A DNA stretch of 45,532 nucleotides, from assembly GCA_015066215.1 (NCBI GenBank), contig SVOU01000001.1, positions 1 to 45,532 of the forward strand. The letters run 5' to 3'. Origin of the DNA: Oscillospiraceae bacterium (GTDB lineage: Bacteria > Bacillota > Clostridia > Oscillospirales > Acutalibacteraceae). Positions 8,752 to 35,696 of the stretch are shown piece by piece; position 1 is the first letter of the stretch; the number at the start of each line of letters is the position of its first letter. The notes under the pieces were generated by a model. It saw nothing but the letters and a program-made list of their open reading frames with translations. It had not been told where the DNA came from and did not search any database. The translations under genes were made by a program, and so were the position numbers.

Positions 8752-8940
8752 GGCGCGTCGGGACGTCGCGCCCTACAAACGCCATTTCAACCTATCATCC
8801 GGGATTTGTAGGGGCGGGCATTGCCCGCCCGCGGACGACCGATGGTCGCCCCTACAGTCACGATTTTCTGGTTGTGCGGATTTGCCCCTCATCCGTCACG
8901 CTGCGCGTGCCACCTTCCCCCTCGGGGGAAGGCAAGGGGG
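8752..8940 (+). repeat. Intergenic repeat block R1: TGTAGGG/CCCTACA units plus one double-hairpin module
   Basis: CCCTACA unit at 8752-8778, TGTAGGGGCGGGCATTGCCCGCCCG at about 8807-8831, and a double-hairpin module at 8885-8936 (CACGC/GCGTG and CCTTCCCC/GGGGAAGG stems, ending GGCAAG). The same modules recur at five other intergenic sites in this window. Confidence 0.85.
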
Positions 8941-8987
8941 GCGCCGTTTGCCGCGGAGGCAAGGGATGACAACAACCGTATATGCGA

Positions 8988-10643
8988 TCATTTGCCGCCG
9001 CTTTCGAAATTGTAACGGTCGGCTTCTTTTTTGAAGGCGTTATAATCCGCCGCTTTATCGGGGTAATATTTGGCGTGAAGCTCAGCGAGTGCCACCAATC
9101 TTCTGCCTTTGAACACCTCATAGCTCCACAGGTCTTCCCACGTCTTGTCGAGGAACCAGCCGAAGTTATAGACATATTCACCGATGACGTAGGTACAGGG
9201 GTGGGCATATTTCATATTGAACTCCTCAAGGGACAGGGCGTAGATATCGTCGATCTCGGCGGTGGTGAACACGTTGTCCCAGCATTCAAAGGAATCTTTG
9301 CCGTAGGTCGTGGCGTAGTGGAGATACAGTTGCTCATTAAGTTGCTCGAAAGTGGCGCGGGTGATGCCGAAATGCGCGAGCCAACGGTTGATGGCGTCGC
9401 CGCGTGAGGCATAAAACTTGCCGTTTTTCTCGGCGTCAAGCTGCGCTTTGAAGGCGTCGACCGCCTCTTGTCCGTAGGTGTCGACCATATAGTCCATCAG
9501 GATATCGTCAATGCGATTCCAGCGGGCGTGAGAGATATAGGTGTTGTAGCCGTCGCCATAGACGGTGCGGTCCATTTCGGCGGCAGTGAAGCGGATGAGC
9601 TTTTCTTTAACGGCGGTGGTGCCTCTGCCAAAACTCTCTGCGCTGTCATACGCCGCTTTCACCTGCTCCACAGTAAAACCTTTTTCCACCCATTTTTCCA
9701 CGGGGTTATCGACGAGCCAATCATAGCGGTAGATATGGCCTTCTTCGGTCACGATGGCATGCTCGGCGGCATATTTGCGGGCAAATTCCGGCCAGGTGAG
9801 GTTGTAGATGTCGTCGATCTCCTCGTCGGTGAAGGTGTTGTTTTCCAGTTCCCATTCATAGTCCAATTTTTTATAGCTCTCTTTTGCTTGCCTATTGAGT
9901 TCCTCAAACACGTCGCGCGGCATATTAAAGCGACGGACGTATTCGTGTGTACTCAAACTCCACTCATACTTGACACTCTTTTCGCCTTTGTTTTTGTTTT
10001 CTTCATACACGTCGAACGCGTTTTTTCCGTAATTGTCGCAAACCCATTCCATAAATTCATTGAAAATCCCACTGAATTTACTCGATCTGAAATAATCGTA
10101 GGGCGAGTCGCCGCCTTGCGGTTCGCCACTGCTGCCGTACGGTCTGCCGCTTGCGTTAGGGCTGACAAAGCCGGGGGCGGTGGGTGCTTGGGATTCGGAA
10201 TAGTATATGGTCGGATTCGTGGTCGCAACGGTGCTGCTTGGGGTGCCGCCGTTGGCGTTGCCGTTTTCACCGTTGCCATCGTTTTTGTCGCTGCCGTGTT
10301 CGCCGCCGTAGTTAATATCTTCGCCGCGGCTGGGGGCGGTGGTGCTCGCATCAAAGACGCCGTCCATATTTTCATAGTACCCGTCGTCGGGCGACATCGG
10401 GGCATCGCCGCTGCTGTTTTTGTCAGCCGTCACGTCACGCCACGCGTTGAGAATGGGCAGACACACCAGCATAATGGCGGCGGCCGCGGCGACGAGGGAG
10501 GTGGCAAATATCCATCGGCGCGCAGTCTTTTGGGGGGCGGGGGCGGCTATACGCGCGGCAAGCGCCGCCCAATCGTCTTTGGCGTTTTGGTCGCAAAACT
10601 GTGTCCAGTCGGCTTTTAACGCCGCTATATCACGCTCGTTCAT
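8988..10643 (-). CDS. Single-pass membrane protein with tandemly duplicated unknown C-terminal domain (anti-sigma candidate by position only)
   Basis: I start it at ATG 10643 (MNERDIAALKADW...), which has an AAGGAG SD and lies 17 nt after the sigma gene stop. One TM segment (RRWIFATSLVAAAAAIMLVCLPILNAW). A G/N/S/P-rich linker is followed by two repeats of about 125 aa. No HxxxCxxC zinc anti-sigma motif was seen. Confidence 0.75.
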   Translation of the reverse strand: MNERDIAALKADWTQFCDQNAKDDWAALAARIAAPAPQKTARRWIFATSLVAAAAAIMLVCLPILNAWRDVTADKNSSGDAPMSPDDGYYENMDGVFDASTTAPSRGEDINYGGEHGSDKNDGNGENGNANGGTPSSTVATTNPTIYYSESQAPTAPGFVSPNASGRPYGSSGEPQGGDSPYDYFRSSKFSGIFNEFMEWVCDNYGKNAFDVYEENKNKGEKSVKYEWSLSTHEYVRRFNMPRDVFEELNRQAKESYKKLDYEWELENNTFTDEEIDDIYNLTWPEFARKYAAEHAIVTEEGHIYRYDWLVDNPVEKWVEKGFTVEQVKAAYDSAESFGRGTTAVKEKLIRFTAAEMDRTVYGDGYNTYISHARWNRIDDILMDYMVDTYGQEAVDAFKAQLDAEKNGKFYASRGDAINRWLAHFGITRATFEQLNEQLYLHYATTYGKDSFECWDNVFTTAEIDDIYALSLEEFNMKYAHPCTYVIGEYVYNFGWFLDKTWEDLWSYEVFKGRRLVALAELHAKYYPDKAADYNAFKKEADRYNFESGGK

Positions 10644-10660
10644 AGGCGTTCTCCTTTCTC

Positions 10661-11170
10661 TCAATGTACGGCTGTCACGCGGCATTTTTCGAGCGCCTTC
10701 GTGTGCCGCCATTTGACCGTGCCCTCGGGGGTATCGGTAACACGGGCGATCTCTTTGAAGGTCATATCGTGGAAATAGTGCAGTACGATCACCTGCCGCT
10801 CCTCGATGTCCAGCCTTTTGAGCAGTGCCTGCACGTCAAGGCGGCTGTCAAAATCGGGGGACGCGGGGGTTTCGGGCAGGGCTTCGGTCGGCTGTTGCCG
10901 CTGTTTTTCGCGGCACATTTCCAGAGATACCCGTCGGCAGATGCCGTAAAGATAGGCACGGCCTTGCCCTTTGGGGCGATAGCGGGAAACGGCGTGATAC
11001 AGCCGCAAAAACGTTTCGGACACGGCGTCGTTGGCGGCGTCCGTATCTTGCAGGATACTGTAAGCATAGGAAAACAGCTCGCGTCGCAGGCGGTGATAGA
11101 TATGTTCGAGCGCGTCGGTGTTTTCTTTCAGGCTGAGCAGTAATTGGTCTATGGTGCGTTCATCCGTCAC
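10661..11170 (-). CDS. Sigma-70 family (ECF-like) RNA polymerase sigma factor
   Basis: 169 aa from GTG 11170, with an AAGGAGGG SD 5 nt upstream. Region 2-like DAANDAVSETFLRLYHAVSRYRP and region 4 HTH LHYFHDMTFKEIARVTDTPEGTVKWRHTKAL. The longer track ORF (to 11782) only reads through repeats. Confidence 0.85.
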   Translation of the reverse strand: MTDERTIDQLLLSLKENTDALEHIYHRLRRELFSYAYSILQDTDAANDAVSETFLRLYHAVSRYRPKGQGRAYLYGICRRVSLEMCREKQRQQPTEALPETPASPDFDSRLDVQALLKRLDIEERQVIVLHYFHDMTFKEIARVTDTPEGTVKWRHTKALEKCRVTAVH

Positions 11171-11305
11171 GGGTATCCCTCCTTTCGAAATCGCGGTTTG
11201 GGGAAGCTTCCGTCTATATATGCGTGGGGGTTGGTAAAAAGTTGGTGATTTTGGAAAATATTTTTGCAGTAACGGCAGGAGAGAACCATTTATAGGTATC
11301 GTTAT

Positions 11306-11887
11306 CTCTCCCTCACCCACCTGCGGTGGGAGCTCCCTCGTCAGAGGGAGCCAAGAAAACGCCGCGTAATTGCCGCCTATCGTCTTTGAATGTAGGGCGC
11401 GACGTCCTCGCTGCGCCGTTTTTCCGCGGGGGAAGGCAAGAAAGCGTAGCCGCAAGGTGCGTGCAAAATCCAAGGCGCGCTTGCGGACCGTCGGGGACGC
11501 ACCGTTTGCATTTCCCCTCATCCACCGCCGTTCGGCGGTCCCCCTTCCCCCGAGGGGGAAGGCAAGAATGCACGGATTTTTGGCTGTGCTTTTTTGCGGC
11601 GCGTCGAGGACGCCCGAAGGAAGTGCCCTTGGGGTGCGTCGCGCCCTACAATGTTGGTTTTTAGGTGAAATCGGGATTTGTAGGGGCGAACTGTGTTCGC
11701 CCGTAACGCCCCTCTCACCCGCTACCGCGGGAGCTCTCCCAAAGGGAGAGCCTGCGGACCGTCGGGGATACCCCAAGGGCACTTCCGATGGGCGCGCCGG
11801 TCCCTACAATGTTGATTTTCAGGTTGTGCGGGATTTCCCCTCATCCGTCACGCTTCGCGTGCCACCTTCCTCTTGGAGGGAGGCAAG
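11306..11887 (+). repeat. Intergenic repeat cluster R2: four double-hairpin modules plus several TGTAGGG/CCCTACA units
   Basis: Double-hairpin modules at 11306-11355, 11514-11566, 11709-11755 and 11837-11887, plus a partial one at 11424-11440. TGTAGGG units at 11391-11418 and about 11679-11703. CCCTACAA at 11644-11651 and 11802-11809. 17-bp inverted repeat 11619-11635 / 11770-11786. 16-nt direct repeat TGCGGACCGTCGGGGA at 11482-11497 and 11753-11768. Confidence 0.85.
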
Positions 11888-11906
11888 AATGCGCGGCTTT
11901 GGGGTG

Positions 11907-11948
11907 CAAAAAAAGACAAAACAAGCCTGCACGGGTTGCGCAGGCTTG
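11907..11948 (-). terminator. Intrinsic terminator after the DHHW gene
   Basis: Minus strand: stem CAAGCCTGC / GCAGGCTTG (11922-11948) followed by TTTTGTCTTTTTTT. Confidence 0.7.
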
Positions 11949-11963
11949 CTTTTGGGCGGGGGA

Positions 11964-13406
11964 TTATTTTCCGACAAATTTTTCCAGATAGCCCACCAAG
12001 GTGGAGCTGCGGGTGGCGGAAATGTTGTTCACAAAGATGATATCCTGCACCGCGTAATTTTTCATAAATTCATCGAGCTTTGGTTTGTAGTAGCGATAGT
12101 CCACCACGTAGACGTGTTCGTATTCGTCCACGAGGAAGGGCACGAAAGCGTTGCCGTAGGACTCTTTGATCACGACACAGGCAGAGCCGTCGTTTTTGGT
12201 CGGGTTTTTGATCTCGGTAAAGGGATAGTCACCGCCGATGAAGCAGGAGTATTTTCTACTCGCTGAGCGGTTGGACACGTCATAGACCACGTTCCACTTG
12301 AACTTCTTGCCGTCATAGCCCGTGATGGTCAGGTCGTTGGTGCTGCGCGGCAACCACGCCTCAACGCAGTCGGGGTTATTGCCCAGCGCGGGACTTTGTT
12401 TGGTGGCGGAATAGAAGGTGCCGAGGAAGTTGTCAAACTTCTTCTGCGGATAATCGTCCAGCGAGGCGGGCATTTTGCCCTTGACCTGCATCAGCGTGGC
12501 ATAGGCATAGTAAGCACTGCGCTGTGTCCAGTGGTGGTCGGTGCGGAAATAGAGATATTCGTCGCGGTGTGCCATCAGCGTATCGTAGATCGGCACGTCG
12601 AACACGCTCTCGTCCGTTTTGCTGAAAATATAGCGCATCGCTTTGCCCTGGTCGGAGGAGTTGACCTTGCCGCGCAGGTCGTCGGGCAACATAACGCCCA
12701 TACTGTTGGGCACTACGATGGTGTAGACGTTGGCTTTGCCTTGCAGCTTTTTGGCGGTATGGTTGAGCATCGCCGCATAGCGGTCGGCGACCGCTTGCTT
12801 GAAGTTATAATACTCAAACGCCGCGTCACCCACCTGCAACACCGCGTCGAAGGATTGCGAGATCACGTTTTCACCGCCGATCTGCGCGGTGGGCGGCGTG
12901 GTGGGACGGGTGGTGGTCGTAGTGCTTTGGGTGGTATCGGTTTGGGTCGTCTCGGTGGCGGTAGAGCCCGTGGTTGTCGTAGTGGTCTGTGTGGTGGTCT
13001 GGGTGGGCAAGGGCGGCAACGTCGGCGCGTCGGGCACGTCGGGGATCTCGTCGCCCTGCTGCACGTCGCCGTGGATATTCATATCCTCGTCCTGCGGCAG
13101 TCCATAGGCGTCCTCCCAGCGACCGTTGGCTTCCACCCACATATCGCGCAGGGGGAAGGTGTCGGCGTACCATTTGCTGATGCCGTCGAAATAGTCACCG
13201 CTTACGAGCGCTTCCCACGAAAAATCGGGAAATTCCGCCAGCTTGCGCTTTTCGCTTTCCGATTCGGTCGGACGCAACGGTAACAAAAGACCCAGCACGG
13301 TCATACCTGTGAGGGCGAGCGCAAATACGGCGATCTGCACCTTTTCCCACGGGCGGGGGTCACGGTCTTTGCGGCGGCTGTGCCGCGGTTCTTTGTTTTG
13401 GTTCAT
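11964..13406 (-). CDS. DHHW family protein (AlgX/AlgJ-like SGNH partner of MBOAT acyltransferases)
   Basis: 480 aa with an N-terminal TM anchor and the literal DHHW motif (YFRTDHHWTQRSAYYAY). A Thr-rich linker (TQTTTQTTTTTTGSTATETTQTDTTQSTTTTTRPTTPP) is present. The start lies 18 nt after the MBOAT stop, with an AAAGGGGG SD. Confidence 0.85.
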   Translation of the reverse strand: MNQNKEPRHSRRKDRDPRPWEKVQIAVFALALTGMTVLGLLLPLRPTESESEKRKLAEFPDFSWEALVSGDYFDGISKWYADTFPLRDMWVEANGRWEDAYGLPQDEDMNIHGDVQQGDEIPDVPDAPTLPPLPTQTTTQTTTTTTGSTATETTQTDTTQSTTTTTRPTTPPTAQIGGENVISQSFDAVLQVGDAAFEYYNFKQAVADRYAAMLNHTAKKLQGKANVYTIVVPNSMGVMLPDDLRGKVNSSDQGKAMRYIFSKTDESVFDVPIYDTLMAHRDEYLYFRTDHHWTQRSAYYAYATLMQVKGKMPASLDDYPQKKFDNFLGTFYSATKQSPALGNNPDCVEAWLPRSTNDLTITGYDGKKFKWNVVYDVSNRSASRKYSCFIGGDYPFTEIKNPTKNDGSACVVIKESYGNAFVPFLVDEYEHVYVVDYRYYKPKLDEFMKNYAVQDIIFVNNISATRSSTLVGYLEKFVGK

Positions 13407-16012: not shown

Positions 16013-18985
16013 ATGAAAGCACTTAACTCCGAGCGCGTGATGCGCGGTGTGTTTTGGACGGTGCTGATCCTGGCACTGGTGGTGCTGTTTGCTATGGTGC
16101 TCGTCGCGGGCGACGACAGCCAAGAGATCTCGCTGCAAAGTATTCTGTTCCCCGTGGAGATCGGTATTTTGCTGGGCGGGTTGGGCTTTTTCGTGTATCA
16201 CCAATTCACCGCCACCGAAAAGCGCGAGCGTCCCGTATGGTTTTTCCCGCTGATGGCGGGGCTGTTGGGGCTTTTGTGTATGGTGACCGCCTATACCCAG
16301 CTCGGTATGTGGCCGGCGGGCACCCGCACGGGTATGATCGTGGATATGCACCACCAATACGCCCCTCTGCTGGCGCAGTTGCGGGACGAGCTGTTGGATT
16401 TTGACCTCGCTTTTTATGATTTTGAGGTGGGTCTGGGCACGAGCTTTTTGCCGCTTTTTGGCTATTATCTCGCCAGCCCCTTTAATCTTTTGCTGCTCCT
16501 CTTCCCCGAGCATCTGCTGTGCGAGGGCATTTTGACCGTCACCCTCATCAAAAACGCGCTGGCGGCGGCGTTTATGGCGGCGTTGTTGCAATATCTGTTC
16601 CGCCGTCGTGATTTCACGGTGCTTATCGGCGGTGTGATGTATTCGCTGTCAATGTATTTCCTCGCCTATTCGTGGAACATTATGTGGCTTGACTGCCTGA
16701 TGATGTTGCCGCTGGTGATCATCGGCTTTGAGCGGCTGGTCAAGCAAGGGCGCTACGGTATGTACGTGCTGACGCTCGCCTACACGCTTTACGCCAACTA
16801 CTATATCGGCTTTATGGTGTGCATCTTCTTGGTGCTTTACTATTTCTTCTATCTTGGGCGGCAACGGCACGCCGCGGGGGCTGTGGGCAACAGTATGGTG
16901 CGGTTTGGTATCGGCTCGTTGCTCGCGGGCGGTTTGGCGGCGTTTTTGATCGTGCCCGTGTATCTGTCCCTGTCTGCTACTTCGGCGGCGGGCGGCACGA
17001 TGCCCGATCAGCTGTCGGCGACCTTCCCCACCCTCGGTATGTTTGAGCAGTTGCTGTTCGGCACCGTTCCCACCATCCGCTCGGGCAATCTGCCCAACGT
17101 CTATTGCGGTATTCTGGCGGTGGTGCTGGTGCCCGTCTATCTGACCACCGCGGCCATTCCGCTGCGGCGGCGCGTGGCGATGGGTTGCCTGCTCACAGCG
17201 GTCACCCTTTCTGCCCCGCTCAATATCCCCGACCTTATCTGGCACGGTCTGCACGCGCCCAACGATCTGCCTTACCGTTTCTCCTTCCTCATCTCCTTCG
17301 TGCTGATTCTGATGGCGTATGAAACGGTCACCCACCTGTCCGCGGTCAAGCCGCGTCAACTGCTGTTCTCGGCGACGGGCGTAGGCTTGCTGATTTTGGT
17401 GCTGGAACGCCTCAATGCCGTGGAAGCGATGACCGACGCCAAAAAAGCGGGCGATCTGCCTTTTGTGTCGGTGTACGTGAGTTTGATCTTGGTGGCGGTC
17501 TACGCCGCGGTGCTGATGGCGATCCGCCGCAAGAAAATGGTGCTGCGCGGCGGCGTGGCGCTCTTGCTGCTCATCGTCACCACCGAACTGACCCTCAATG
17601 CGGGGCTGACCTTTGAAACGCTCAACAAAAACGAATATTTCACCGCGCACAACAGCTACGTGGACAACGTGGAGACCGACGCCTACAAAATGGCGGTGGA
17701 GCGCGCCAAGGAGATCGGCGAAAAGGACTATCCCGACGATTTCTACCGCTTGGAGTTCTTGCCGCGCCGCACCTGTGTGGACACTGCGCTGTATCACTAC
17801 AAGGGTATCACCACCTTTGCGTCGAGCAACGCCTATGAGCCGACCCGCCTGATGGGGGCGATGGGCTATGCGATCAACGGCGTCAACAGCTATCTCTACC
17901 GCGATTTCGCGCCCGCGACCGACGCGCTGTTGGGTATTCGCTACGTGATACTTGACCACCAGCCTGACGACAAACCGCAGCTTATCTACAAAGATACCGT
18001 CACCGCCGAGCGTGTGACGGACGACGGTTACACCGCCACCAAGACGCTGTATATCTATGAAAATACGGCGGCGTTGCCCGTGGCTTTTGCCACCGACGCG
18101 GCGGTGCGCGATTTCTATTACAGCTATTACGATCCGTTTGGCACCATCAACGATCTGTACCGTGCCTTTAACGGCAACAACAGCAGTTCGTCGCTCTTTG
18201 ACTGCGCACAGATCTTTGCTGACGGTGATGGCTACGTCAACGGCACCTACGGCTTCCAGATCAACGGCGGCGGCAGCTGCACCTTCACGGCGGATATTGA
18301 GCGTGCGGGACAATATTTCCTCTATGCCGATTGCCGCGCCGCCTCGTCGATCGACGTGTCCAGCAGCACGAACAGCTGGTCCGTGACCCCGTACGAGCCC
18401 TATATCATCAACGCGGGCGAGCTTGTTGAGGGCGACACCATCTCTTTCACCGTCAACTGTGACGGCACCGCCACCGGCAACCTCTACGTGGCGCGCTTGG
18501 ACGAGGAGCTGTTCCTCGCCACCAACGCATCCTTGCAACAGAGCGGGTTACAGATCACCGATTGGTCGGATACCCGCATTGAGGGTACGCTCACCGCGCA
18601 AGAAAACGGCAGCGTGATGACCTCCATCGTCTATGACGAAAACTGGATGGTGCTGGTTGACGGACAGCGTGTGGAGACCTTTGCGGTCGGCAACGGCTTC
18701 GTCGGCTTTGACGTCACGGCGGGCAAACACGAGATCACCCTGATGTTCGTTCCCACCCCCTTCTTTATCGGTTTGCTCATCAGCGGCGTGTGTCTGATCA
18801 TCCTCCTGCTGCTTATGTGGCTGCGCCGCCGTATGGATAAGGCGGCAAAGGCGGCTCCCGTGCCGCTGGCGGTTTTGGCAGAAAACGCCGCGCCCGTGGA
18901 AGCGGTTGAGCCTGCGGAAGCGGCAGAGCCTGCGGAAGCAGTTGAGCCTGCACCGTCTGCGGATGCGCCGCAAGCGGAAGAATAA
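16013..18985 (+). CDS. YfhO family membrane protein (lipid-linked glycosyltransferase-like)
   Basis: 990 aa from ATG 16013 (AAAGGAG SD 7 nt upstream). Family-typical HHQYAPLLAQLRDEL...GLGTSFLPLFGYYLASPFNLLLLLFP...LIKNALAAAF, many TM helices, and a large C-terminal ectodomain plus a final TM. Confidence 0.85.
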   Translation: MKALNSERVMRGVFWTVLILALVVLFAMVLVAGDDSQEISLQSILFPVEIGILLGGLGFFVYHQFTATEKRERPVWFFPLMAGLLGLLCMVTAYTQLGMWPAGTRTGMIVDMHHQYAPLLAQLRDELLDFDLAFYDFEVGLGTSFLPLFGYYLASPFNLLLLLFPEHLLCEGILTVTLIKNALAAAFMAALLQYLFRRRDFTVLIGGVMYSLSMYFLAYSWNIMWLDCLMMLPLVIIGFERLVKQGRYGMYVLTLAYTLYANYYIGFMVCIFLVLYYFFYLGRQRHAAGAVGNSMVRFGIGSLLAGGLAAFLIVPVYLSLSATSAAGGTMPDQLSATFPTLGMFEQLLFGTVPTIRSGNLPNVYCGILAVVLVPVYLTTAAIPLRRRVAMGCLLTAVTLSAPLNIPDLIWHGLHAPNDLPYRFSFLISFVLILMAYETVTHLSAVKPRQLLFSATGVGLLILVLERLNAVEAMTDAKKAGDLPFVSVYVSLILVAVYAAVLMAIRRKKMVLRGGVALLLLIVTTELTLNAGLTFETLNKNEYFTAHNSYVDNVETDAYKMAVERAKEIGEKDYPDDFYRLEFLPRRTCVDTALYHYKGITTFASSNAYEPTRLMGAMGYAINGVNSYLYRDFAPATDALLGIRYVILDHQPDDKPQLIYKDTVTAERVTDDGYTATKTLYIYENTAALPVAFATDAAVRDFYYSYYDPFGTINDLYRAFNGNNSSSSLFDCAQIFADGDGYVNGTYGFQINGGGSCTFTADIERAGQYFLYADCRAASSIDVSSSTNSWSVTPYEPYIINAGELVEGDTISFTVNCDGTATGNLYVARLDEELFLATNASLQQSGLQITDWSDTRIEGTLTAQENGSVMTSIVYDENWMVLVDGQRVETFAVGNGFVGFDVTAGKHEITLMFVPTPFFIGLLISGVCLIILLLLMWLRRRMDKAAKAAPVPLAVLAENAAPVEAVEPAEAAEPAEAVEPAPSADAPQAEE
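18896..18949 (+). repeat. 3 x 18-bp tandem repeat inside the YfhO 3' end
   Basis: GTGGAAGCGGTTGAGCCT / GCGGAAGCGGCAGAGCCT / GCGGAAGCAGTTGAGCCT, encoding VEAVEP-AEAAEP-AEAVEP in the cytoplasmic tail. Confidence 0.8.
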
Positions 18986-28252: not shown

Positions 28253-28296
28253 CCCTATATAGCCGCTTTTGCGGCTATATAGGGAATTTTTGTTTT
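28253..28296 (+). terminator. Intrinsic terminator after uvrC
   Basis: 14-bp stem CCCTATATAGCCGC / GCGGCTATATAGGG, loop TTTT, then AATTTTTGTTTT. Confidence 0.85.
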
Positions 28297-28301
28297 GGGC
28301 G

Positions 28302-28330
28302 TTGACAATTTGAGAAGAATAGAGTATAAT
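28302..28330 (+). promoter_or_regulatory. Consensus sigma-A promoter of tRNA-Pro
   Basis: TTGACA (28302-28307), a 17-nt spacer, then TATAAT (28325-28330), about 20 nt before the tRNA 5' end. Confidence 0.8.
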
Positions 28331-28349
28331 AAGCAGGCTGTGAACAGTT

Positions 28350-28426
28350 CGGGGTGTAGCTCAGTTTGGTAGAGCGCTTGGTTCGGGACCAAGAGGCCAT
28401 GGGTTCAAGTCCCGTCACTCCGACCA
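28350..28426 (+). tRNA. tRNA-Pro (anticodon CGG), CCA encoded
   Basis: Hand-folded cloverleaf. Acceptor CGGGGTG/CACTCCG, D arm GCTC/GAGC, anticodon arm CTTGG-TTCGGGA-CCAAG (anticodon CGG), T arm ATGGG-TTCAAGT-CCCGT, discriminator A plus CCA. Confidence 0.9.
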
Positions 28427-28427
28427 A

Positions 28428-28463
28428 AACAACCGACCACCATTCGGTGGTCGGTTGTTTTTT
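28428..28463 (+). terminator. Intrinsic terminator directly after tRNA-Pro
   Basis: 14-bp stem AACAACCGACCACC / GGTGGTCGGTTGTT, loop ATTC, then TTTT. Confidence 0.85.
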
Positions 28464-28780
28464 GTTGCAGCGATGGATTTGTGCCGGTTGCTTTGTGTCC
28501 CGAACCAAGGGTGAGGGACCAGGTGACGGAGCCGAGCGCGTCCGGTGGACGGTACAGCGAGGCGGAGGAAGCGCGAAACAAGGAGCATCGACCGCGACTG
28601 CGTGGCGAGGCGACTATGTTTTCGCGCGGTAGCCATGGGTTCAAGGTTTCCTTGAACCCTATGAGGGCGCGGGGCGTGAAGAAAAACAGTCCGGTGGACT
28701 GTTTTTTAGCCGCGCGGTGCGCAGGCGGGAACCGCGCAAACGCGGTCGCCAAGCACGGCTGATTTGCAACGCAAAGCAGC
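28430..28780 (+). mobile_element. 351-bp non-coding insert bounded by a 21-bp duplication of the tRNA-Pro 3' end (integrated-element remnant or small element)
   Basis: Flanked by GTCCCGTCACTCCGACCAAAA at 28409-28429 and 28781-28801. It contains tRNA-Pro fragments (14 nt at 28632-28645 match 28396-28409; 28497-28509 is the reverse complement of 28377-28389), a perfect hairpin at 28637-28659 and two terminators. No convincing ORF. Confidence 0.4.
28685..28707 (+). terminator. Terminator-like hairpin inside the insert
   Basis: AACAGTCC-GGT-GGACTGTT followed by TTTT and preceded by an A-run (potentially bidirectional). Confidence 0.6.
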
Positions 28781-28801
28781 GTCCCGTCACTCCGACCAAA
28801 A
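28781..28801 (+). repeat. Second copy of the tRNA-Pro 3' end (att-like direct repeat)
   Basis: 21/21 identity with 28409-28429 (T-loop end, T stem 3' half, acceptor 3' half, ACCA, AAA). Confidence 0.9.
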
Positions 28802-28867
28802 GAAAAAGACTGCACACTCGGGCAGTCTTTTTGTTATCCTTATTTTTACAGCACCAGAGAGGGGGCG
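28802..28867 (+). repeat. Orphan copy of the ferritin terminator plus ferritin 3' end (duplicate of 30255-30323)
   Basis: 28825-28845 is identical to 30280-30300 and 28846-28867 is identical to 30302-30323, with a single 1-nt indel between them. The preceding terminator hairpin (28803-28832) has the same design as 30257-30287, with a compensatory stem change. Confidence 0.85.
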
Positions 28868-28886
28868 AACACGGTTTTGGGGGCTC

Positions 28887-28914
28887 TTGTTTTTTGCTTT
28901 GTTTCTGTTATAAT
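28887..28914 (+). promoter_or_regulatory. Candidate promoter of the NERD gene (extended -10)
   Basis: TTGTTT (28887-28892), a 16-nt spacer, then TGTTATAAT with TATAAT at 28909-28914. This is only about 13 nt before ATG 28928, so a very short leader or leaderless mRNA is implied. Confidence 0.4.
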
Positions 28915-28927
28915 AACATTGACTACT

Positions 28928-30250
28928 ATGGCAAAAGGGGCGTTTTCTTTGGATGTGAAAAAGGTTTATCAGCAACTAACCGGCGTAGATATTGATCAAC
29001 AATCTCGTCTGTGGGACGAGCGCGGCAAAGGTTATTACGGTGAATACTTGGTTTTTTGTCATCTATATCAGCACATTGCCGGCAACGGAAAAATCCTCAT
29101 GAATCTACAAATCCCTACCGCAAATGGAAAGTCAACAGAAGTCGATTTGGTGTTGATTCATGAAACAGGAATATATGTGTTCGAAATCAAACATTACAAG
29201 GGGACAATCTACGGAAAAGATACCGATTCAGCGTGGACACAATATTTTCGTACCACTCAAAACCATTCTTTCCAAAACCCCTTCATTCAAAACGCTTATC
29301 ACATTGATGCCCTGCGCAAACTCTTTCCACAGTTGCCTATCTATTCCTGCGTTGTTTTTACCAATCCCGAATGTGATATTCGCGTGCTGCACACCAATCC
29401 AAACGTCGACATTTGCGCCCTCCCGTATATGTTGTCGGTACTTTCTAATCGATTTGCGAACGCTTGTCAATGTATTTCCATGGAACAGATCGACGCGGCA
29501 TTTTCTCAGTTGTCCGTCTATTCTCAAATGCAAGCTCCTGTAACTATCAACGCACAAGAAACGAGTTTTTTGGCTTGGATACAACCAACCATCAACAGCC
29601 TGACAGAAAAGCGGCAAGAATTGGAACAAGAACGGCAATCACTACTTTTTCAACGGGAAAAAGCAAAGAAAATAAGGCGCACCAGCGTTTTAGTAAGTGT
29701 GCTTGCTACCATCTGCGCCGTTGCAATGCTGGCATTTGTTGCATTTGGCATCGTCCACAAATATCAACTAGACGCTGATCGCCTTGTACAGGAAAGTGCT
29801 GCCGAACTCAATCAAATGAAAAACAACTTTTTACACATTGATCAGATAGACAACGAATATATCGACACTTTGCATTCCTACGTCGAGGTTTCCAACGAGT
29901 CGATACTGCCCTTAACCGATGACGCCGTTTCTTTTTCTGCACGTGTTGCAATGAAAAATGACACCTATGGTATTGCCTTTACAGAAAAATCAAAATATAT
30001 CGTACATACAACAGCGGGAAAAGTTTATGAATATGATGTTTTCGGGGAACACTTGAAATATAGCCGATTTGCTAATATGATCGGAAAAGGTATTCGAAGC
30101 TATGGTGATTTGAAGGCAGTCCAATTTTATGGTATCTCCGACACAGAAATGGTTTCTTATGTTAAAATCACCGGTGTTGAGTTGTTTTTACTGGACATTC
30201 ACCGAACAATTGTAAAAGATAATTTGGAGATCGAATTGTACGCGCCGTAA
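28928..30250 (+). CDS. NERD (nuclease-related domain) protein with a TM anchor and an unknown C-terminal domain
   Basis: NERD pattern GYYGEYLVFCHL...STEVDLVLIHETGIYVFEIKHYKGTIYG...WTQY...FQNPFIQNAYHIDALRKL, then a coiled-coil-like EKRQELEQERQSLLFQREKAKKIRR. One TM (SVLVSVLATICAVAMLAFVAFGIV) is followed by about 160 aa of unknown function. Start uncertain: ATG 28928 has no SD; TTG 28949 is an alternative. G+C is roughly 35-40% against about 60% or more in the flanks. Confidence 0.8.
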   Translation: MAKGAFSLDVKKVYQQLTGVDIDQQSRLWDERGKGYYGEYLVFCHLYQHIAGNGKILMNLQIPTANGKSTEVDLVLIHETGIYVFEIKHYKGTIYGKDTDSAWTQYFRTTQNHSFQNPFIQNAYHIDALRKLFPQLPIYSCVVFTNPECDIRVLHTNPNVDICALPYMLSVLSNRFANACQCISMEQIDAAFSQLSVYSQMQAPVTINAQETSFLAWIQPTINSLTEKRQELEQERQSLLFQREKAKKIRRTSVLVSVLATICAVAMLAFVAFGIVHKYQLDADRLVQESAAELNQMKNNFLHIDQIDNEYIDTLHSYVEVSNESILPLTDDAVSFSARVAMKNDTYGIAFTEKSKYIVHTTAGKVYEYDVFGEHLKYSRFANMIGKGIRSYGDLKAVQFYGISDTEMVSYVKITGVELFLLDIHRTIVKDNLEIELYAP

Positions 30251-30256
30251 GGGCAT

Positions 30257-30287
30257 AAAAAAAGACCGCCTTGTGGGCGGTCTTTTT
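30257..30287. terminator. Bidirectional terminator between the NERD gene and ferritin
   Basis: AAAAAAA-GACCGCC-TTGTG-GGCGGTC-TTTTT, lying between convergent genes. Confidence 0.85.
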
Positions 30288-30301
30288 GTTATCCTTATTT
30301 C

Positions 30302-30814
30302 TTACAGCACCAGAGAGGGGGCGGAATAGACGCGGGCGGCAAGCTCTTGGTTGAGCATATAGAGGCTCTTGGGGTCGCTGCCGAACAGCTCCATTTTGGT
30401 GATGAGGTCGTTGGCGTTGGTCTCCTCTTCGCCTTGCTCCTTCACGAACCAATCAAGGAACTGCATTGTGCGGAAATCCTTGACTTCATACGCGGCGGCG
30501 TAGATGTCGTTGATGAGCGAGGTGACGTATTCCTCGTGCTCTAAACCTGCTTTGAGGACGTCCATATGGCAGGAAAACTCTTTGTCGGGTTTGGCGATCG
30601 CATCGAGGGTGACCTTTTGGTTTTCGTTTTGCAGATACTGATAAAACAGCATCGCGTGGTCGCGCTCTTCTTGCGCCTGGATCTTATACCAATTGGCGAA
30701 GCCGTCGAGGCCTTTGTCCTCGAAATAGTTGGAGAAATCGAGATAGAGATAGGCGGAATAAAATTCTTTGTTGATCTGCTGATTGAGCAGGTCGCGGACT
30801 TTTTGGTTCATCAT
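30302..30814 (-). CDS. ftnA: Non-haem ferritin
   Basis: 170 aa. INKEFYSAYLYLDFSNYF...WYKIQAQEERDHAMLFYQYL...EHEEYVT gives the ferroxidase-centre residues of bacterial ferritin. Confidence 0.9.
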   Translation of the reverse strand: MMNQKVRDLLNQQINKEFYSAYLYLDFSNYFEDKGLDGFANWYKIQAQEERDHAMLFYQYLQNENQKVTLDAIAKPDKEFSCHMDVLKAGLEHEEYVTSLINDIYAAAYEVKDFRTMQFLDWFVKEQGEEETNANDLITKMELFGSDPKSLYMLNQELAARVYSAPSLVL

Positions 30815-30850
30815 TATGTATGACCTCCTTTTGTGATTTGACAGGGCGAT

Positions 30851-31159
30851 TTAGTTTTCCAGCATAGCCAGAATGTGCTCTTTGGGGCGCGCGCCGACCG
30901 TTTGGTTGGCGATCTTGCCGTCTTTGAGGACGACGAGCATCGGGATGCTCACCACACCGAAGGCTTGCGCCAGCTCGGGTTCTTCATCCACGTTGATCTT
31001 GCCGACGAGATATTGCGGGTTTTCGGCGGCGATCTCATCGACGAGCGGGGACACCATTTGGCACGGACCGCACCAATCGGCATAAAAATCGAGAAGGACG
31101 GGCTTTGTATCGCTTGCGACCTGCTCGAAGTTTTGTTTGTTGACACGAATAACAGCCAT
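30851..31159 (-). CDS. trxA: Thioredoxin
   Basis: WCGPC active site (LLDFYADWCGPCQMVSP). I prefer ATG 31159 (MAVIRV..., 6 nt after GGAAG) over the track start at 31165, which abuts the SD. Confidence 0.92.
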   Translation of the reverse strand: MAVIRVNKQNFEQVASDTKPVLLDFYADWCGPCQMVSPLVDEIAAENPQYLVGKINVDEEPELAQAFGVVSIPMLVVLKDGKIANQTVGARPKEHILAMLEN

Positions 31160-31236
31160 TGTCATCTTCCTTTCTTGGTTGTTATCTTTATTATAACCCG
31201 TCCGTGCGAAATTTTCTATAAGAAAATGTTAATTTT

Positions 31237-31887
31237 TTATTTCAGCTTTTTGAGCTTGGCGGTGTCGGCGATGACGATAAGCTGCATACCGCTTTCCAGC
31301 GGCATCGTGGGATCTATCGTGGTGCTAATCTTATCCGCCTTGCGCAGTGCCACCACATTGATGGCATATTTTTGGCGCAAGCCCAATTCGATCAAGGTTT
31401 TGCCCACCCAATCGGGCTTGACCTGCATATCGACCATCGACACCTCGTCGGACAGTTCGATCATCTCGGAAAAGCCCGCGGACAGCAGATTTCTGGCAAG
31501 GCGAACACCCGATTCTTTTTCAGGGAAGATAACTTTATCGGCACCCACGCGGCTCAATATCTTTTGGTGCATTTCGCTGCCGCATTTGACGATGACCGTT
31601 TCGACCCCCAACTCTTTGCAAAGGGTGACCGCCATCACACAGGCTTCCAGGTGGTTTGCCATAGCGACAACCACCACGTCCATATTGCCGATGCCCAACC
31701 GTTTCATAGTTTCAAGGTCAGTGATATCGGCACATTTGCACACGGGGATGGTTTCGGCGGCGCGGTTGACGTTGCCTTGATCGATATCCACCGCCAACAC
31801 CTCGGCACCGTTGTTGATCAGTTCCTCGGCGACGGCTTGACCGTATCTGCCGAGCCCCAGTACGGCGTACGTTTTATAAATACTCAT
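31237..31887 (-). CDS. ktrA: Trk/Ktr potassium uptake system, NAD-binding peripheral subunit
   Basis: 216 aa with Rossmann YAVLGLGRYGQAVAEEL and RCK_N/RCK_C organisation. It lies 16 nt after the membrane subunit gene, with an AAGGAG SD. Confidence 0.85.
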   Translation of the reverse strand: MSIYKTYAVLGLGRYGQAVAEELINNGAEVLAVDIDQGNVNRAAETIPVCKCADITDLETMKRLGIGNMDVVVVAMANHLEACVMAVTLCKELGVETVIVKCGSEMHQKILSRVGADKVIFPEKESGVRLARNLLSAGFSEMIELSDEVSMVDMQVKPDWVGKTLIELGLRQKYAINVVALRKADKISTTIDPTMPLESGMQLIVIADTAKLKKLK

Positions 31888-31903
31888 AGATACTTCTCCT
31901 TTC

Positions 31904-33256
31904 TTATCCTACGCTGATCTCTTCGGTCGGATCTTTGATGCCGTTGGGATTGCTTCGGTGGCGATTGAACGCAATTGCCAAGGAAATGGGGCCCACACGG
32001 CCCAGATACATCGTCGCAATGATGATATATTTGCCGGCAGTAGACAGCGTGGCAGTCAAATTGCGCGTAAGCCCCACGGTGGCTGTGGCACTGACGGTTT
32101 CATACAGCACGTCCAGTGCAGGCGCGTCGGTGACAGCGGCGAGGGCTACCGTTGATATGAACAGAATGGCAAAGGACGTTCCTGCGACGGCAACGGCTTT
32201 GCCGACCGCTTGCTTTGTCAGCCGTCTGCCAAACAATGCGGTGTCCTCTTGGCCGCGAATCGACGACAACGCTGACGCGATGATCGTCACAAAGGTGACC
32301 GTTTTGATGCCGCCTGCGGTACCGACGGGCGAGCCACCGACAAACATCAGCAGCAGACAGGTCAGCGCGGATGCGTTGGTCAGATGCTCCTGCGGCACGG
32401 TGGCAAAGCCTGCGGTACGGGTGGTCACCGACTGAAAGAGTGCCACCTCTATTTTTTGCGGCAAGGTATAGGCGCCGATGGTTTGCGGATTGTTATATTC
32501 AAACGCCAAGATGAGTGCCGCGCCCACCAAAATGAGAGCGAGGGTGGCGGTGATGGCTATTTTGCTGTGCAGGGTGAGATGGCGAAACCACCACCCTTTT
32601 TTGCGGCGCGCCAATCGGCACGCACGCGGTACGTCCCACCAAACGATATAGCCGATGCCGCCCACGATGATAAGCGCACAGGTGACGGCGTTGACCACAG
32701 GATTTAAGGCGTAGTTGTACAGGCTGTTTTCGGCGATGATATCGATGCCCGCGTTGCAAAAGGCAGAAACGGCGGTGAACACCGACACCCAAACACCTTT
32801 AAGCCCCATTTCGGGGACGAATACCGTCATATACAGAAGTGCGCCGACACCCTCGACAAGCAACGTGCCGAGCACCACTTTTTTTACGAGCCGTACCAAC
32901 CCCGCAAGGGAGTTGAGATTGAAGGCATCCTGCAAAAGCAGGCGGTCACCGATACCCATTTTGCGATGTAAAAGGCTCATCACTGCCGACATAATGGTGA
33001 TGACACCCAGCCCACCGATCTGGATGAGCAACAGGATAACGACGTGACCAAACGTACTCCACGCGGTGACGGTGGGCGTCACCACCAGACCCGTTACGCA
33101 GGTGGAGGTGGTGGCGGTGAAAAGCGCGTCGGTAAAGGAGGTCGATTTGCCGTCAGCCGCGCTGATCGGCAGCATCAGCAACAACGTACCGAGCAGGATG
33201 ACGATCAAAAAGCTGAGCAGAATGATATGGGTGGTCGACAGGCGTTGCGTTTTCAC
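31904..33256 (-). CDS. ktrB: TrkH/KtrB family potassium uptake membrane subunit
   Basis: 450 aa, GTG start with an AAGGAGGGG SD. Polytopic, with repeated selectivity-filter-like segments (TCVTGL, FCNAGID, TRTAGFAT, TVGLT). Confidence 0.85.
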   Translation of the reverse strand: MKTQRLSTTHIILLSFLIVILLGTLLLMLPISAADGKSTSFTDALFTATTSTCVTGLVVTPTVTAWSTFGHVVILLLIQIGGLGVITIMSAVMSLLHRKMGIGDRLLLQDAFNLNSLAGLVRLVKKVVLGTLLVEGVGALLYMTVFVPEMGLKGVWVSVFTAVSAFCNAGIDIIAENSLYNYALNPVVNAVTCALIIVGGIGYIVWWDVPRACRLARRKKGWWFRHLTLHSKIAITATLALILVGAALILAFEYNNPQTIGAYTLPQKIEVALFQSVTTRTAGFATVPQEHLTNASALTCLLLMFVGGSPVGTAGGIKTVTFVTIIASALSSIRGQEDTALFGRRLTKQAVGKAVAVAGTSFAILFISTVALAAVTDAPALDVLYETVSATATVGLTRNLTATLSTAGKYIIIATMYLGRVGPISLAIAFNRHRSNPNGIKDPTEEISVG

Positions 33257-34274: not shown

Positions 34275-34288
34275 CCCTACGCATAAAC

Positions 34289-34320
34289 AATGCCCCCTCA
34301 ACCGAGGGGGCATTTCTCTT
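34289..34320. terminator. Terminator hairpin between convergent genes
   Basis: 11-bp stem AATGCCCCCTC / GAGGGGGCATT, loop AACC, followed by a T-rich TCTCTT. Confidence 0.7.
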
Positions 34321-34321
34321 G

Positions 34322-35458
34322 TCAAACAGTTTCTTTTTCGCGGGTGACACAGGCGTTATAATACCACAAAAAGCGCAGGGTGTTGGTGTTTTGCGGCAGG
34401 AGCTCGTAATAGACCTTGTCGGCGGTGAACACCAGCGCTTTTTTGCCGTGCATCGCCATTTCGGCGATGCTCGCCTGCGGGAAGGTCTTGTCGCCGCAGC
34501 AAAGTGCGTCGGGCGTGAGGGTGATCTCCCCTTCGGCGGCTTGCGTTTCGATATGGTCCTTTACCTGCGAAAGGATGCCGCGCGCGGCGGTATAGGGCTT
34601 GCCCTCTGCTACGTCGCGGGCGACTTGTTCGCGCTGCCAATCGGCAAGGGCGGCAACGGTATCGACGGGCAGCCCGTGGAGATAGCCGTAGGCGTCGTAA
34701 GTGGCGCGCAGGTCACAGGCGGTGCAGGAGACGGTATCGCCGTCGGTGGTGATGGTGTGATAGGCGCCGCATTGCGGGCAGATAAACAGCAGGTTTTCCA
34801 TACCCTTGGCGCCCGCTTTACTGCGATAGGGCGCGGGGTCTTCCGCTTGGCGGGCATAGGCGTCTTCGCCGATGTCGTGAGTGATGACCGCATAGAGTTC
34901 ATCGACCGTCATCGCGGCGACTTCCTCCGGGGAAAATATCCGCACGGGTGCGCCGTGCAGGCGACCGCGGCGCAAGCCGTCGCCCCATTGGGGGCTGACG
35001 AAATAGCCGCCCGTTAAGCGATAGGTGACGAGGCCACAGTTGGCGGACTGAATGAGTTTGGCGATGGCGGGGGTGATGGGGCTGGGGCGACCGTCCCACG
35101 TGCGCACGCCTTCGGGGAACAGACACACGTTGCGCCCTTTGCGCGCGCGGCGCACCATCTCCATCACCGCTTTGGTGGCGGAAGCGCCTTTGGGGCGCAT
35201 AATGGGGTCGAAGACATAGCGCAACAGCGGATAGAGCCGTTTCCAGCGGGCGATATGTTCACTGCCGAGGAAATACATCTGGCGCCGAAAGCTTGCCGCG
35301 ACCAGCAACATATCGTAGTCGGTGGCGTGGTTGGCGACCACGATGTAGGTTTTGGGCAGATTTTTCGCTTTTTCGTAAGTGTAGCCGAAACGCAGTTTCA
35401 GGAACAAGACCACCAGCGGACGCAGCAGGTGGTAAAAAAAGGTGTGGCGTTTTTTCAT
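34322..35458 (-). CDS. Lysophospholipid (PlsC-like) acyltransferase with a C-terminal zinc-ribbon-containing extension
   Basis: 378 aa from ATG 35458 (GGGGAGGGG SD). HX4D motif VANHATDYD and an FPEGVRT block. The C-terminal ~170 aa contain CPQCG...CTAC (four Cys, ribbon-like). Confidence 0.8.
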   Translation of the reverse strand: MKKRHTFFYHLLRPLVVLFLKLRFGYTYEKAKNLPKTYIVVANHATDYDMLLVAASFRRQMYFLGSEHIARWKRLYPLLRYVFDPIMRPKGASATKAVMEMVRRARKGRNVCLFPEGVRTWDGRPSPITPAIAKLIQSANCGLVTYRLTGGYFVSPQWGDGLRRGRLHGAPVRIFSPEEVAAMTVDELYAVITHDIGEDAYARQAEDPAPYRSKAGAKGMENLLFICPQCGAYHTITTDGDTVSCTACDLRATYDAYGYLHGLPVDTVAALADWQREQVARDVAEGKPYTAARGILSQVKDHIETQAAEGEITLTPDALCCGDKTFPQASIAEMAMHGKKALVFTADKVYYELLPQNTNTLRFLWYYNACVTREKETV

Positions 35459-35564
35459 CGGGTCCCCTCCCCTTTTTTGGCGCGGTGTGCGCGTGCAGAG
35501 TTGTTGTAACTTCAAGAATTATACCACATTTTCGGCGGTGACACAACTGTTTTTTCGGCGGGCG

Positions 35565-35696
35565 TGAGGGGTTGCGCCCTACAACGCTTATGTTTTGGGT
35601 TAGTGCGAAATTGGCGGCGCGTGGGGGACGACACGCCGTTATGCCCCTCATCCACCGCCGTGCGGCGGTCCCCCTTCCCCCGCAGGGGAAGGCAAG
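35565..35696 (+). repeat. Intergenic repeat block R6
   Basis: GCGCCCTACAA (35574-35584) plus a double-hairpin module at 35644-35696 (ACCGCC/GGCGGT and CCTTCCCC/GGGGAAGG, ending GGCAAG). It is nearly identical in design to 11514-11566. Confidence 0.85.

Follow-up and report, generated by a model that had tools for sequence, protein, structure and literature searches.

A covarying double-hairpin repeat in the spacers of an Oscillospiraceae genome, probably a family of short palindromic DNA elements

The window analyzed in this work is the first 45,532 nt of contig SVOU01000001.1 (assembly GCA_015066215.1) of an Oscillospiraceae bacterium, and the spacers between its genes carry a repeated module of two adjacent hairpins, called here the double-hairpin (DH) unit. 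It is on balance probable that the DH repeats form a single family of short interspersed DNA palindromes of the kind known from repetitive extragenic palindromes (REPs), bacterial interspersed mosaic elements (BIMEs), REPINs, and Rickettsia palindromic elements (RPEs). The evidence comes from the uniform anatomy of the copies, the covariation of both stems, the occurrence of the same module in many other genomes, and its frequent arrangement in inverted pairs.

Anatomy of the double-hairpin unit and its copies in the window

The DH unit is a discrete module of 47–58 nt, in which a head, hairpin 1, a linker of 1–3 nt, hairpin 2, and a tail follow in this order. The C-rich, single-stranded head CCCCTCATCC marks one sharp end and the tail CAAG the other; the ends are regarded as sharp because the positions flanking the units carry no more than 0.24 bit each. 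The two hairpins are unlike in sequence and in the pattern of conservation. The stem of hairpin 1 is free to vary provided that pairing is kept (e.g., GTCGGC/GCCGAC, GGCCC/GGGCC, ACCGC/GCGGT, CACGGC/GCCGTG), and its loop is constrained, being a triloop in 106 of 168 cases (TNC in 75 of those) with a C:G closing pair in 140 of 168. The TNC loop closed by C:G reads C-GNA-G on the complementary strand, a loop known from DNA mini-hairpins of unusual stability. The stem of hairpin 2 is conserved as pyrimidine/purine, CCTTCCCCC/GGGGGAAGG or GCTYCCC/GGGRAGC, the loop is free, and two subtypes were distinguished, the GGCAAG type and the GCCAAG type. No T-run follows either hairpin on either strand, no promoter was associated with the units, and the + strand of the unit has no stop codon in any reading frame.

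A covariance model (CM), seeded with 34 copies from other genomes and eight copies from the window, was run over the whole window with the filters off. It returned eight full-length matches on the + strand (28–70 bits, E-values of 5e-5 to 3e-14), echoes of the palindromic hairpin 2 on the − strand, and one full-length − strand match. Since the window copies sat in the seed, their independent support comes from the approximately 200 further matches in other genomes. The following copies and fragments were found:

8885-8936, + strand: DH copy 1, GGCAAG type (CM 69.6 bits, fold)
11306-11355, + strand: DH copy 2, GCCAAG subtype, hairpin 2 GCTCCCT/AGGGAGC (CM 43.5 bits, fold)
11424-11440, + strand: DH 3′ fragment with the 3′ arm of hairpin 2 and the tail, GGCAAGAA, directly after a GTAG-tagged REP
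11514-11566, + strand: DH copy 3, hairpin 1 ACCGCC/GGCGGT (CM 60.8 bits, fold)
11709-11755, + strand: DH copy 4, hairpin 2 GCTCTCCC/GGGAGAGC, without the CAAG tail (CM 28.3 bits, fold)
11837-11887, + strand: DH copy 5 (CM 56.9 bits, fold)
19190-19218, + strand: DH 5′ fragment with head and hairpin 1, 100% identical to 8892-8915 over 24 nt
21393-21445, + strand: DH copy 7, hairpin 1 degenerate (CM 58.5 bits, fold)
26200-26260, − strand: DH unit with the full layout, member of an inverted-repeat pair (CM 15.1 bits, E 0.04, fold)
26307-26354, + strand: DH copy 8, right half of the inverted pair, in the divergent Mur ligase/uvrC spacer (CM 29.7 bits, fold)
35644-35696, + strand: DH copy 9 (CM 58.7 bits, fold)

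All eight full copies of the + strand fold into two adjacent hairpins, and both their positions and their shared layout agree with the first-pass annotation of the window, made from the sequence alone, in which the stem variants had also been listed correctly. Every full copy is a short imperfect palindrome with a stable stem-loop in the manner of REPs and BIMEs, with two stem-loops in place of one. The degenerate copy that had been placed at about 19190-19235 does contain DH sequence, reduced to the 5′ fragment at 19190-19218; hairpin 2 was lost beside the end of an ABC transporter gene at 19242. The unit at 26200-26260, when read on the − strand, consists of the head ATCCCCCAG, hairpin 1 CAGCC/GGCTG, hairpin 2 GCCCCCTT/AAGGGGGC, and the tail CAAAAGG, and forms with copy 8 a head-to-head inverted pair (26200-26364), the only pair in the window. 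Its presence contradicts the earlier statement that every full copy has the same orientation: instead of nine copies out of nine there are ten pieces on the + strand (eight full copies and two fragments) against one full copy on the − strand, hence the bias is real and not absolute. Neither the − strand unit nor the 3′ fragment at 11424-11440 appears in the first-pass annotation. All copies in the window are extragenic, lying in the spacers between genes, and most of them are unpaired and co-oriented. The 10-nt head CCCCTCATCC occurs in five exact copies, each followed by the same two-hairpin layout, whereas with one mismatch the 10-mer is not rare (6 found versus 2.9 expected). The recurring pseudo-peptides in the open reading frame (ORF) track, attributed to the repeats in the first reading, are indeed their direct translations.

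Covariation was evaluated in two alignments. In the seed alignment, 90.5% of the cells were paired versus 81.4% after shuffling, with a covariation score of 0.252 versus 0.096; in the set of 107 distinct matches the corresponding values were 93.0% versus 79.3% and 0.337 versus 0.112, and none of 500 shuffles reached the score in either case. The alignment of the 107 matches was fitted to the CM, which favors structure; the seed alignment and the slid-partner controls, in which 45–69% of the cells were paired, agree with it. Two-sided changes were present in 12 of the 13 pairs of the larger set, so the proposed covariation of the stems between copies proved to be strong in both hairpins.

A contig of a related species (L122), whose DHHW protein is 70% identical to that of the window and whose sigma factor gene region is 96% identical in DNA, allowed an orthologous comparison. 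Copy 3 has the same flanks there and carries hairpin 1 ACCAACC/GGTTGGT in place of ACCGCC/GGCGGT; copy 5 keeps its hairpin 1 and carries hairpin 2 CCTCCCTT/AAGGGAGG, still paired, in place of CCTTCCTC/GAGGGAGG. Copies 2 and 4 are absent from the orthologous positions. Variants of L122 recur at window copy 8, so that conversion among the copies and point mutation are equally likely sources of these changes.

Occurrence, pairing and orientation in other genomes and phages

A scan of genomes for the head and the tail at a distance of 26–40 nt yielded at least 115 stretches, and about 95 of the 106 distinct matches listed show the DH layout. The CM gave 213 matches in ascertained loci that total 816 kb and come from more than 60 genomes. 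Among the matches listed, the carriers include Oscillospiraceae, Lachnospiraceae, Butyrivibrio (among them sp. VCD2006), Christensenellaceae, Gemmiger formicilis, and Flintibacter faecis, as well as Acidaminococcaceae (Negativicutes), Bifidobacterium margollesii, a metagenome-assembled genome (MAG) of Vampirovibrionia, Mesorhizobium (among them sp. WSM4083), Hyphomicrobiales, other proteobacterial MAGs, and phages of Clostridia. A BLAST search with a Mesorhizobium pair located the monomer, at sites where no feature is annotated, on replicons of Rhizobium, Shinella, Azospirillum, and Sinorhizobium, and a Sphingobium plasmid carries a head-to-head pair. With 10 copies in the 45.5 kb of the window and 0.26 per kb in the ascertained loci, the density would extrapolate to hundreds of copies per genome; REPs and BIMEs typically exceed 100 per genome.

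About half of the copies outside the window lie close to another copy. Among 222 matches there were 36 head-to-head pairs (gaps mostly 2–50 nt), eight tail-to-tail pairs, and 12 tandem pairs, with 136 unpaired monomers versus 86 copies in inverted pairs. The inverted pairs, which often combine a GGCAAG-type with a GCCAAG-type unit as heterodimers, fold into one long branched hairpin. Inverted doublets of this sort are the REPIN/BIME pattern. Four chromosomal matches overlapped a gene call, all at gene ends, and three of these overlaps are N-terminal extensions that look like mis-called starts. The units occupied a fraction of 0.15 of the divergent spacers, 0.27 of the tandem ones, and 0.26 of the convergent ones.

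Two kinds of denser arrangement were observed. An intergenic repeat island of about 1.9 kb in MAG C.B3_4 (L026, 4800-8000) contains at least eight DH units in both orientations, mixed with several local repeat modules of 50–170 nt. In MAG CALVLO (L092, 800-1300, and L054, 100-600), four to six different two-hairpin units stand head to tail within one spacer, all in the sense direction, each with its own head variant (CCCCTC, ACTCCCAC or ATCCCCCCT).

Searches of Rfam and of the available literature returned no name for the family, in agreement with the first reading, which knew of none, and its alpha-proteobacterial branch may overlap the loosely described RIME and Bru-RS1/2 repeats. In Rfam 15, only a tRNA reached the gathering score in the window, and nothing relevant appeared at E ≤ 10 in 8300-12000. 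A hammerhead or another ribozyme was considered, as the complement has GGAUGA after the second hairpin, similar to CUGAUGA, and was rejected for the lack of the GAAA core and of any model match. The segment GGAAGGTG resembles the inverted repeat of IS5, and CAAG resembles the target of IS91; both are short likenesses with no other support.

The orientation of the unpaired copies was compared with that of the local gene majority. In total, 77 copies were antisense and 46 sense (p 0.007), distributed as follows:

Window: antisense 7, sense 0
MAG C.B3_4: antisense 21, sense 7
Lachnospiraceae MAG (CAMJAP): antisense 14, sense 2
MAG CALVLO: antisense 2, sense 10
Other genomes: antisense 33, sense 27

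Among the 33 loci with at least two unpaired copies, 25 were fully co-oriented (12.2 expected), and the ratio of same-direction to different-direction pairs within loci, 125:17, was reached in none of 20,000 simulations. The local co-orientation of unpaired copies is therefore real and generalizes beyond the window. On phage contigs, recognized by terminase and portal genes, 30 of the 31 copies were sense; these copies are not all independent, as some are orthologous. One rule does not cover both the chromosomal and the phage patterns.

Whether the bias follows replication, as had been suggested, was not established, since its direction relative to genes differs between replicons and two proxies disagree within the window. 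The orientation of the genes, including rpoB and rpoC, points to the − strand as the leading one. The third-position GC skew of the coding strand equals −0.257 for − strand genes and +0.041 for + strand genes (+0.18 for uvrC, +0.23 for LysR); it follows the DNA strand, so that the + strand is G-rich whatever the gene direction and looks like the leading strand. This skew, striking in the window, was inconsistent in other loci and was set aside as a replication proxy.

The phages also provided copies inside genes. On phage contig L140, a DH unit at 7251-7310 lies in frame in the gene for the large terminase subunit and adds the peptide DPHQSPAATASPRGSQ in a variable loop of the protein, whereas the 85%-identical terminase gene of L137 lacks the unit. 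A stop-free ORF of at least 2474 aa in L126 includes three in-frame units; the two alternative frames contain 51 and 83 stops. Such RPE-like in-frame copies were seen in phage contigs only and not in the window. With the + strand open in all three frames, the pseudo-peptides are real parts of some phage proteins. Related phages carry from none to seven copies, which points to gain and loss.

Two further observations concern these phages. The motif GGACGGGGG(AC) recurs right before the head and after the tail of phage copies (L128, L127, and L140), the in-frame terminase copy included. Contigs of Oscillospiraceae tailed phages encode a rolling-circle Rep of the G2P/ORF2 type (PF23343, a small family with 58 proteins found) just upstream of the terminase genes (L128, 3223-3879; L135, 1529-2173).

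Companion modules and gene context of the window

The DH units of the window are accompanied by a second module, consisting of TGTAG and a hairpin of 6–8 bp with covarying stems. Its existence and its occurrence on both strands, reported in the first-pass annotation, were confirmed. Its dimers, back-to-back or GTAG-inward, have a conserved spacer of 28 nt, and the module is a member of the GTAG-tagged REP class (PMC3733652). The following modules were located:

8752-8777, − strand: GTAG-REP, a hairpin followed by CCCTACA on the + strand
8807-8831, + strand: GTAG-REP, TGTAG followed by GGGCGGGC/GCCCGCCC
8832-8856, − strand: GTAG-REP, back to back with 8807-8831
8857-8884, + strand: conserved spacer GTCACGATTTTCTGGTTGTGCGGATTTG, joining REP(−) to the DH head
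11391-11418, + strand: GTAG-REP
11596-11650, − strand: GTAG-REP with a 23-nt oriented segment in the loop
11679-11703, + strand: GTAG-REP, GGGCGAAC/GTTCGCCC
11786-11808, − strand: GTAG-REP, degenerate, upstream of DH copy 5
19093-19118, − strand: GTAG-REP
19147-19174, + strand: GTAG-REP
21357-21384, + strand: GTAG-REP, directly upstream of DH copy 7
35560-35583, − strand: GTAG-REP with a weak hairpin, upstream of DH copy 9

The spacer of 8857-8884 recurs at 11809-11836, and a related one joins REP(−) to REP(+) at 11651-11678 and 19119-19146. The order in the window is fixed: REP(−), the 28-nt spacer, an optional REP(+), and DH(+), with seven recurrences in one orientation, and in two cases the DH head occupies the exact place of the GTAG of REP(+). 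The strings of REP and DH modules are BIME-like mosaics all facing one way. The link between the two is specific to the lineage of the window; in other genomes DH units are joined to other local modules. An oriented segment of 23–25 nt (CGCCCGAAGGAAGTGCCCTTGGGGT), conserved in L122, lies in a GTAG-REP loop at 11611-11635 and, inverted, inside the next REP at 11770-11794.

The window, from an uncultured species of Clostridia with a G+C content of about 58%, covers a housekeeping region. Contigs with the same genes were metagenome contigs only, 99.8–100% identical to the window, and the closest relative of one marker protein was 70% identical. According to the gene calls and Pfam matches, about 26 of the 30 genes are on the − strand:

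940-4584, − strand: rpoC
4602-8291, − strand: rpoB
− strand: unknown gene of 551 aa
10661-11170, − strand: ECF sigma factor
11964-13406, − strand: DHHW/ALGX
− strand: MBOAT, ABC exporter, GNAT, two M42 peptidases, Mur ligase, and others
16013-18985, + strand: YfhO
26398-28245, + strand: uvrC
+ strand: LysR
28877-30250, + strand: NERD-domain gene

The stretch from the − strand terminator at 8671-8633 to the stop codon at 8988 contains DH copy 1 together with its REPs. Copies 5 and 9 are placed beyond the intrinsic terminator of the upstream − strand gene, and copy 7 likewise by eye; the − strand terminator near copy 9 is at 35779-35766. The DH units themselves were rejected as intrinsic terminators, because no T-run follows their hairpins and real terminators were found elsewhere. 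Directly after copy 3, a + strand terminator-like hairpin with a T-run was noticed at 11570-11589, where no + strand gene was called. A 135-nt stretch at this hairpin is 94% identical in L122, whereas the adjoining DHHW gene is only 78% identical; the stretch may represent a small transcript or a tract of recent conversion.

Two other features lie apart from the repeats. At 18878-18949, the 3′ end of the YfhO gene carries three 18-nt units in tandem (GCGGAAGCGGYWGAGCCT), which would encode a short repeated peptide. The stretch at 28000-32000 has a low GC content (0.48–0.49 versus about 0.58), holds a tRNA (28350-28423) and the NERD gene, and may be a small island; the NERD gene is flanked by a 25-nt repeat (28843 and 30299) with bidirectional terminators.

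Nature of the repeats and their possible mode of spread

The closest likeness is to the REPs and BIMEs of Enterobacteria and the REPINs of Pseudomonas, which are associated with the REP-associated tyrosine transposase (RAYT, TnpA-REP). DH units are likewise short, GC-rich, extragenic palindromes, probably of high copy number, that keep pairing while the stem sequence drifts, form frequent inverted pairs folding as one long hairpin as well as mosaic clusters with other modules, and prefer 3′ and co-directional spacers over divergent ones. They differ from REPs in having two different hairpins and a conserved single-stranded head instead of one hairpin, in lacking GTAG, in their presence in several phyla, whereas REPs are usually lineage-specific, and in having no RAYT linked to them in the 1.06 Mb of sequence searched; the strong local co-orientation of unpaired units and the copies in phages and inside phage genes also set them apart. 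The GTAG-tagged REP super-family, which includes SMAG of Stenotrophomonas, was surveyed by Di Nocera et al. (2013; PMC3733652) with mention of neither Clostridia nor Firmicutes; it is the second module of the window that matches it, with TGTAG and a hairpin of 6–8 bp in both orientations, tail-to-tail and head-to-head dimers, and conserved spacers. CGTC-tagged REPs have stems of 8–9 bp starting with AT pairs and a CCA tail, and the DH unit, which follows neither the stem nor the tail rule, was rejected as one of them.

Other families share single traits with the DH units. RPEs also occur both between genes and in frame within genes, adding a short peptide in a tolerant loop, but they measure 100–150 bp and are confined to Rickettsia, whereas the in-frame DH copies lie only in phage genes and the chromosomal ones are extragenic. 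The ends of IS200/IS605 elements and their ORF-less derivatives, the palindrome-associated transposable elements (PATEs), resemble DH units in the hairpins beside conserved single-stranded motifs, the absence of target duplication, and the strand-specific behavior to be expected, the loop of DH hairpin 1 being on one strand a GNA triloop, as in very stable hairpins of single-stranded DNA. For such elements an orientation tied to replication is expected, with the active strand on the lagging-strand template; the DH units are strongly co-oriented locally, in a direction that varies between replicons, and the replication direction of the window is ambiguous. In IS200/IS605 elements, however, the hairpins of the left and right ends are alike and a fixed target of 4–5 nt is used; similar end hairpins and insertion 3′ of a fixed tetra- or pentanucleotide, typical of PATEs, were not seen in DH units, whose hairpins are unlike and which have no target motif, and no tnpA or tnpB gene was found near the copies. 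Correia/NEMIS, BOX, RUP, ERIC, and other MITE-like repeats (MITE, miniature inverted-repeat transposable element) are similarly small, non-autonomous, and intergenic, and sometimes co-transcribed, but they possess terminal inverted repeats with target duplications, or are modular and non-palindromic, and each belongs to one genus; no sequence similarity to Correia/NEMIS, BOX, RUP, or ERIC was found. The initial description of the family as 'REP/BIME- or MITE-like' is supported in its first half, given the extragenic location, the many structured copies with sharp ends, the inverted pairs, and the mosaics with GTAG-REPs. As to the second half, terminal inverted repeats with a target-site duplication were not found: inverted pairs are present and their flanks hold no information.

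As a member of the palindromic repeats, the DH unit would function at the DNA level, by means of hairpins that single strands extrude, and not in the form of one defined RNA. The units may multiply as non-autonomous elements with the aid of an enzyme that would read the hairpin shape, the conserved stem, and the head, the leading candidate being an HUH-type single-strand nuclease or transposase such as RAYT. Copies would persist where they do little harm, i.e., after terminators, in 3′ regions, in phage spacers, and in frame in tolerant loops of proteins, and local co-orientation would arise from strand-specific insertion or local copying. We infer this mode of spread from the anatomy of the units.

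Several results weigh against the assignment of the DH units to the palindromic repeats. A tblastn search with E. coli RayT gave nothing below E 0.1 in the 1.06 Mb of sequence searched, the genes between DH copies were all housekeeping ones, and no transposase or autonomous insertion sequence was seen near about 220 copies. The HUH Rep of the phages (PF23343) was rejected as the origin or partner enzyme of the units, as it is flanked by them in two related phages and unflanked in five more distant phages with the same Rep. No direct repeat or target-site duplication flanks the inverted pairs, and no conserved target motif was detected in the flanks. The DH unit carries neither GTAG nor CGTC as a tag at the palindrome foot, and CCGTC precedes hairpin 1 in some copies only. 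At the strain level, six metagenome contigs of the same species, 99.8–100% identical to the window, offered no clean pair of filled and empty sites. A scan of JGI metagenomes for related loci gave no usable result. The direction of the bias, differing between replicons, is not predicted by one simple replication-coupled rule, and the near-identical head and hairpin 2 in distant phyla find no explanation among palindromic repeats of this kind.

This last point would be explained if the units were non-mobile structural DNA sites maintained by the host, e.g., as binding sites of gyrase, a nucleoid protein, or a factor in replication or repair, and were spread and homogenized by recombination or gene conversion. 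The same head and hairpin 2 are indeed present in Clostridia, Bifidobacterium, and alpha-proteobacteria, the stem ACCAACC/GGTTGGT shared by position 26313 of the window and the L122 ortholog of copy 3 suggests conversion, and E. coli BIMEs bind gyrase, IHF, and Pol I (PMC2817692). We nevertheless consider host-maintained sites unlikely, since copy number and position vary greatly between related genomes and phages, some units lie in frame inside phage genes, and no regular spacing or fixed genomic position was seen. Variable presence in related genomes and phages would suit an alternative in which the head-to-head pair is the mobile unit, with DH sequences as terminal inverted repeats moved by a DDE transposase of some insertion sequence family and the monomers as decay products. 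The 36 head-to-head pairs, 110–180 bp long with the inverted ends CTTGCC...GGCAAG, and the sharpness of the ends speak for it. The unpaired monomers, however, outnumber the paired copies (136 versus 86), are intact, and have equally sharp ends; the halves of a pair often belong to different subtypes, no target-site duplication accompanies the pairs, and the vicinity of the approximately 220 copies is free of transposase genes, which makes such a mobile pair slightly more improbable still than host-maintained sites.

The least likely of these alternatives, if by little, is a strand-specific structured RNA, either a cis-regulatory or 3′-UTR element or a small RNA family, which would need a transcript of the + strand or its complement and in which selection on the fold would produce the covariation. 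It accords with the strong covariation in both stems, the shared orientation of copies within a neighborhood, the 30 of 31 phage copies that are sense and lie within or between co-transcribed genes, the place of copy 1 between a stop codon and a terminator, and the terminator-like hairpin after copy 3 conserved in L122. An RNA made from one strand would tolerate only G:U mismatches, whereas in hairpin 2 we counted 23 G:T and 27 A:C mismatches in a ratio independent of the orientation relative to genes. Across genomes, sense and antisense copies are both common, inverted pairs account for a large share of the copies, three window copies lie beyond terminators, the units have no associated promoter, some are translated in frame in phage genes, and no Rfam match was obtained even at E ≤ 10. 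The strand-specific RNA function suggested in the first reading consequently received no support, G:T and A:C being equally common, and we favor a DNA-level element over a defined RNA in view of the mismatches, the inverted pairs, the copies beyond terminators, the GNA triloop, and the Rfam result. There is next to no probability that unrelated GC-rich hairpins or terminators merely resemble a family. The genome is GC-rich, single hairpins are common in it, and the one-mismatch 10-mer is not rare; against this stand the five exact heads that all precede the same layout, the CM E-values down to 3e-14, the hundreds of matches in other genomes, and the hairpins devoid of T-runs, and the CM matches together with the covariation refute the idea.

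A bolder version of the mobile palindromic repeat, doubtful though less so than the alternatives above, would make the DH unit a pan-bacterial selfish single-stranded DNA element with its own conserved trans-acting enzyme, which would read the head, the GNA-looped hairpin 1, and the purine/pyrimidine hairpin 2. It would insert into the strand exposed by replication, so that the unpaired copies of a replicon would face one way, with the direction set by the mode of replication (chromosome versus rolling-circle phage). Phages would carry it between lineages, and it might settle in frame in essential phage genes.

If the DH family is as widespread as the scans suggest, it would be a frequent element of rhizobia and of Clostridia from gut and rumen that goes unannotated. 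It yields many spurious 'hypothetical proteins' (PLIRP...GTFP.RGKA, CRARRPRR), and a model of the family would clean up annotation. The in-frame terminase copies indicate that essential phage proteins tolerate these inserts, and the near-perfect local co-orientation, with a direction varying by replicon, bears on the choice of strand by elements that depend on single-stranded DNA. With this family, the REP/RAYT concept, in which hairpin DNA is domesticated or parasitic, would come to include Firmicutes and the phages that infect them.

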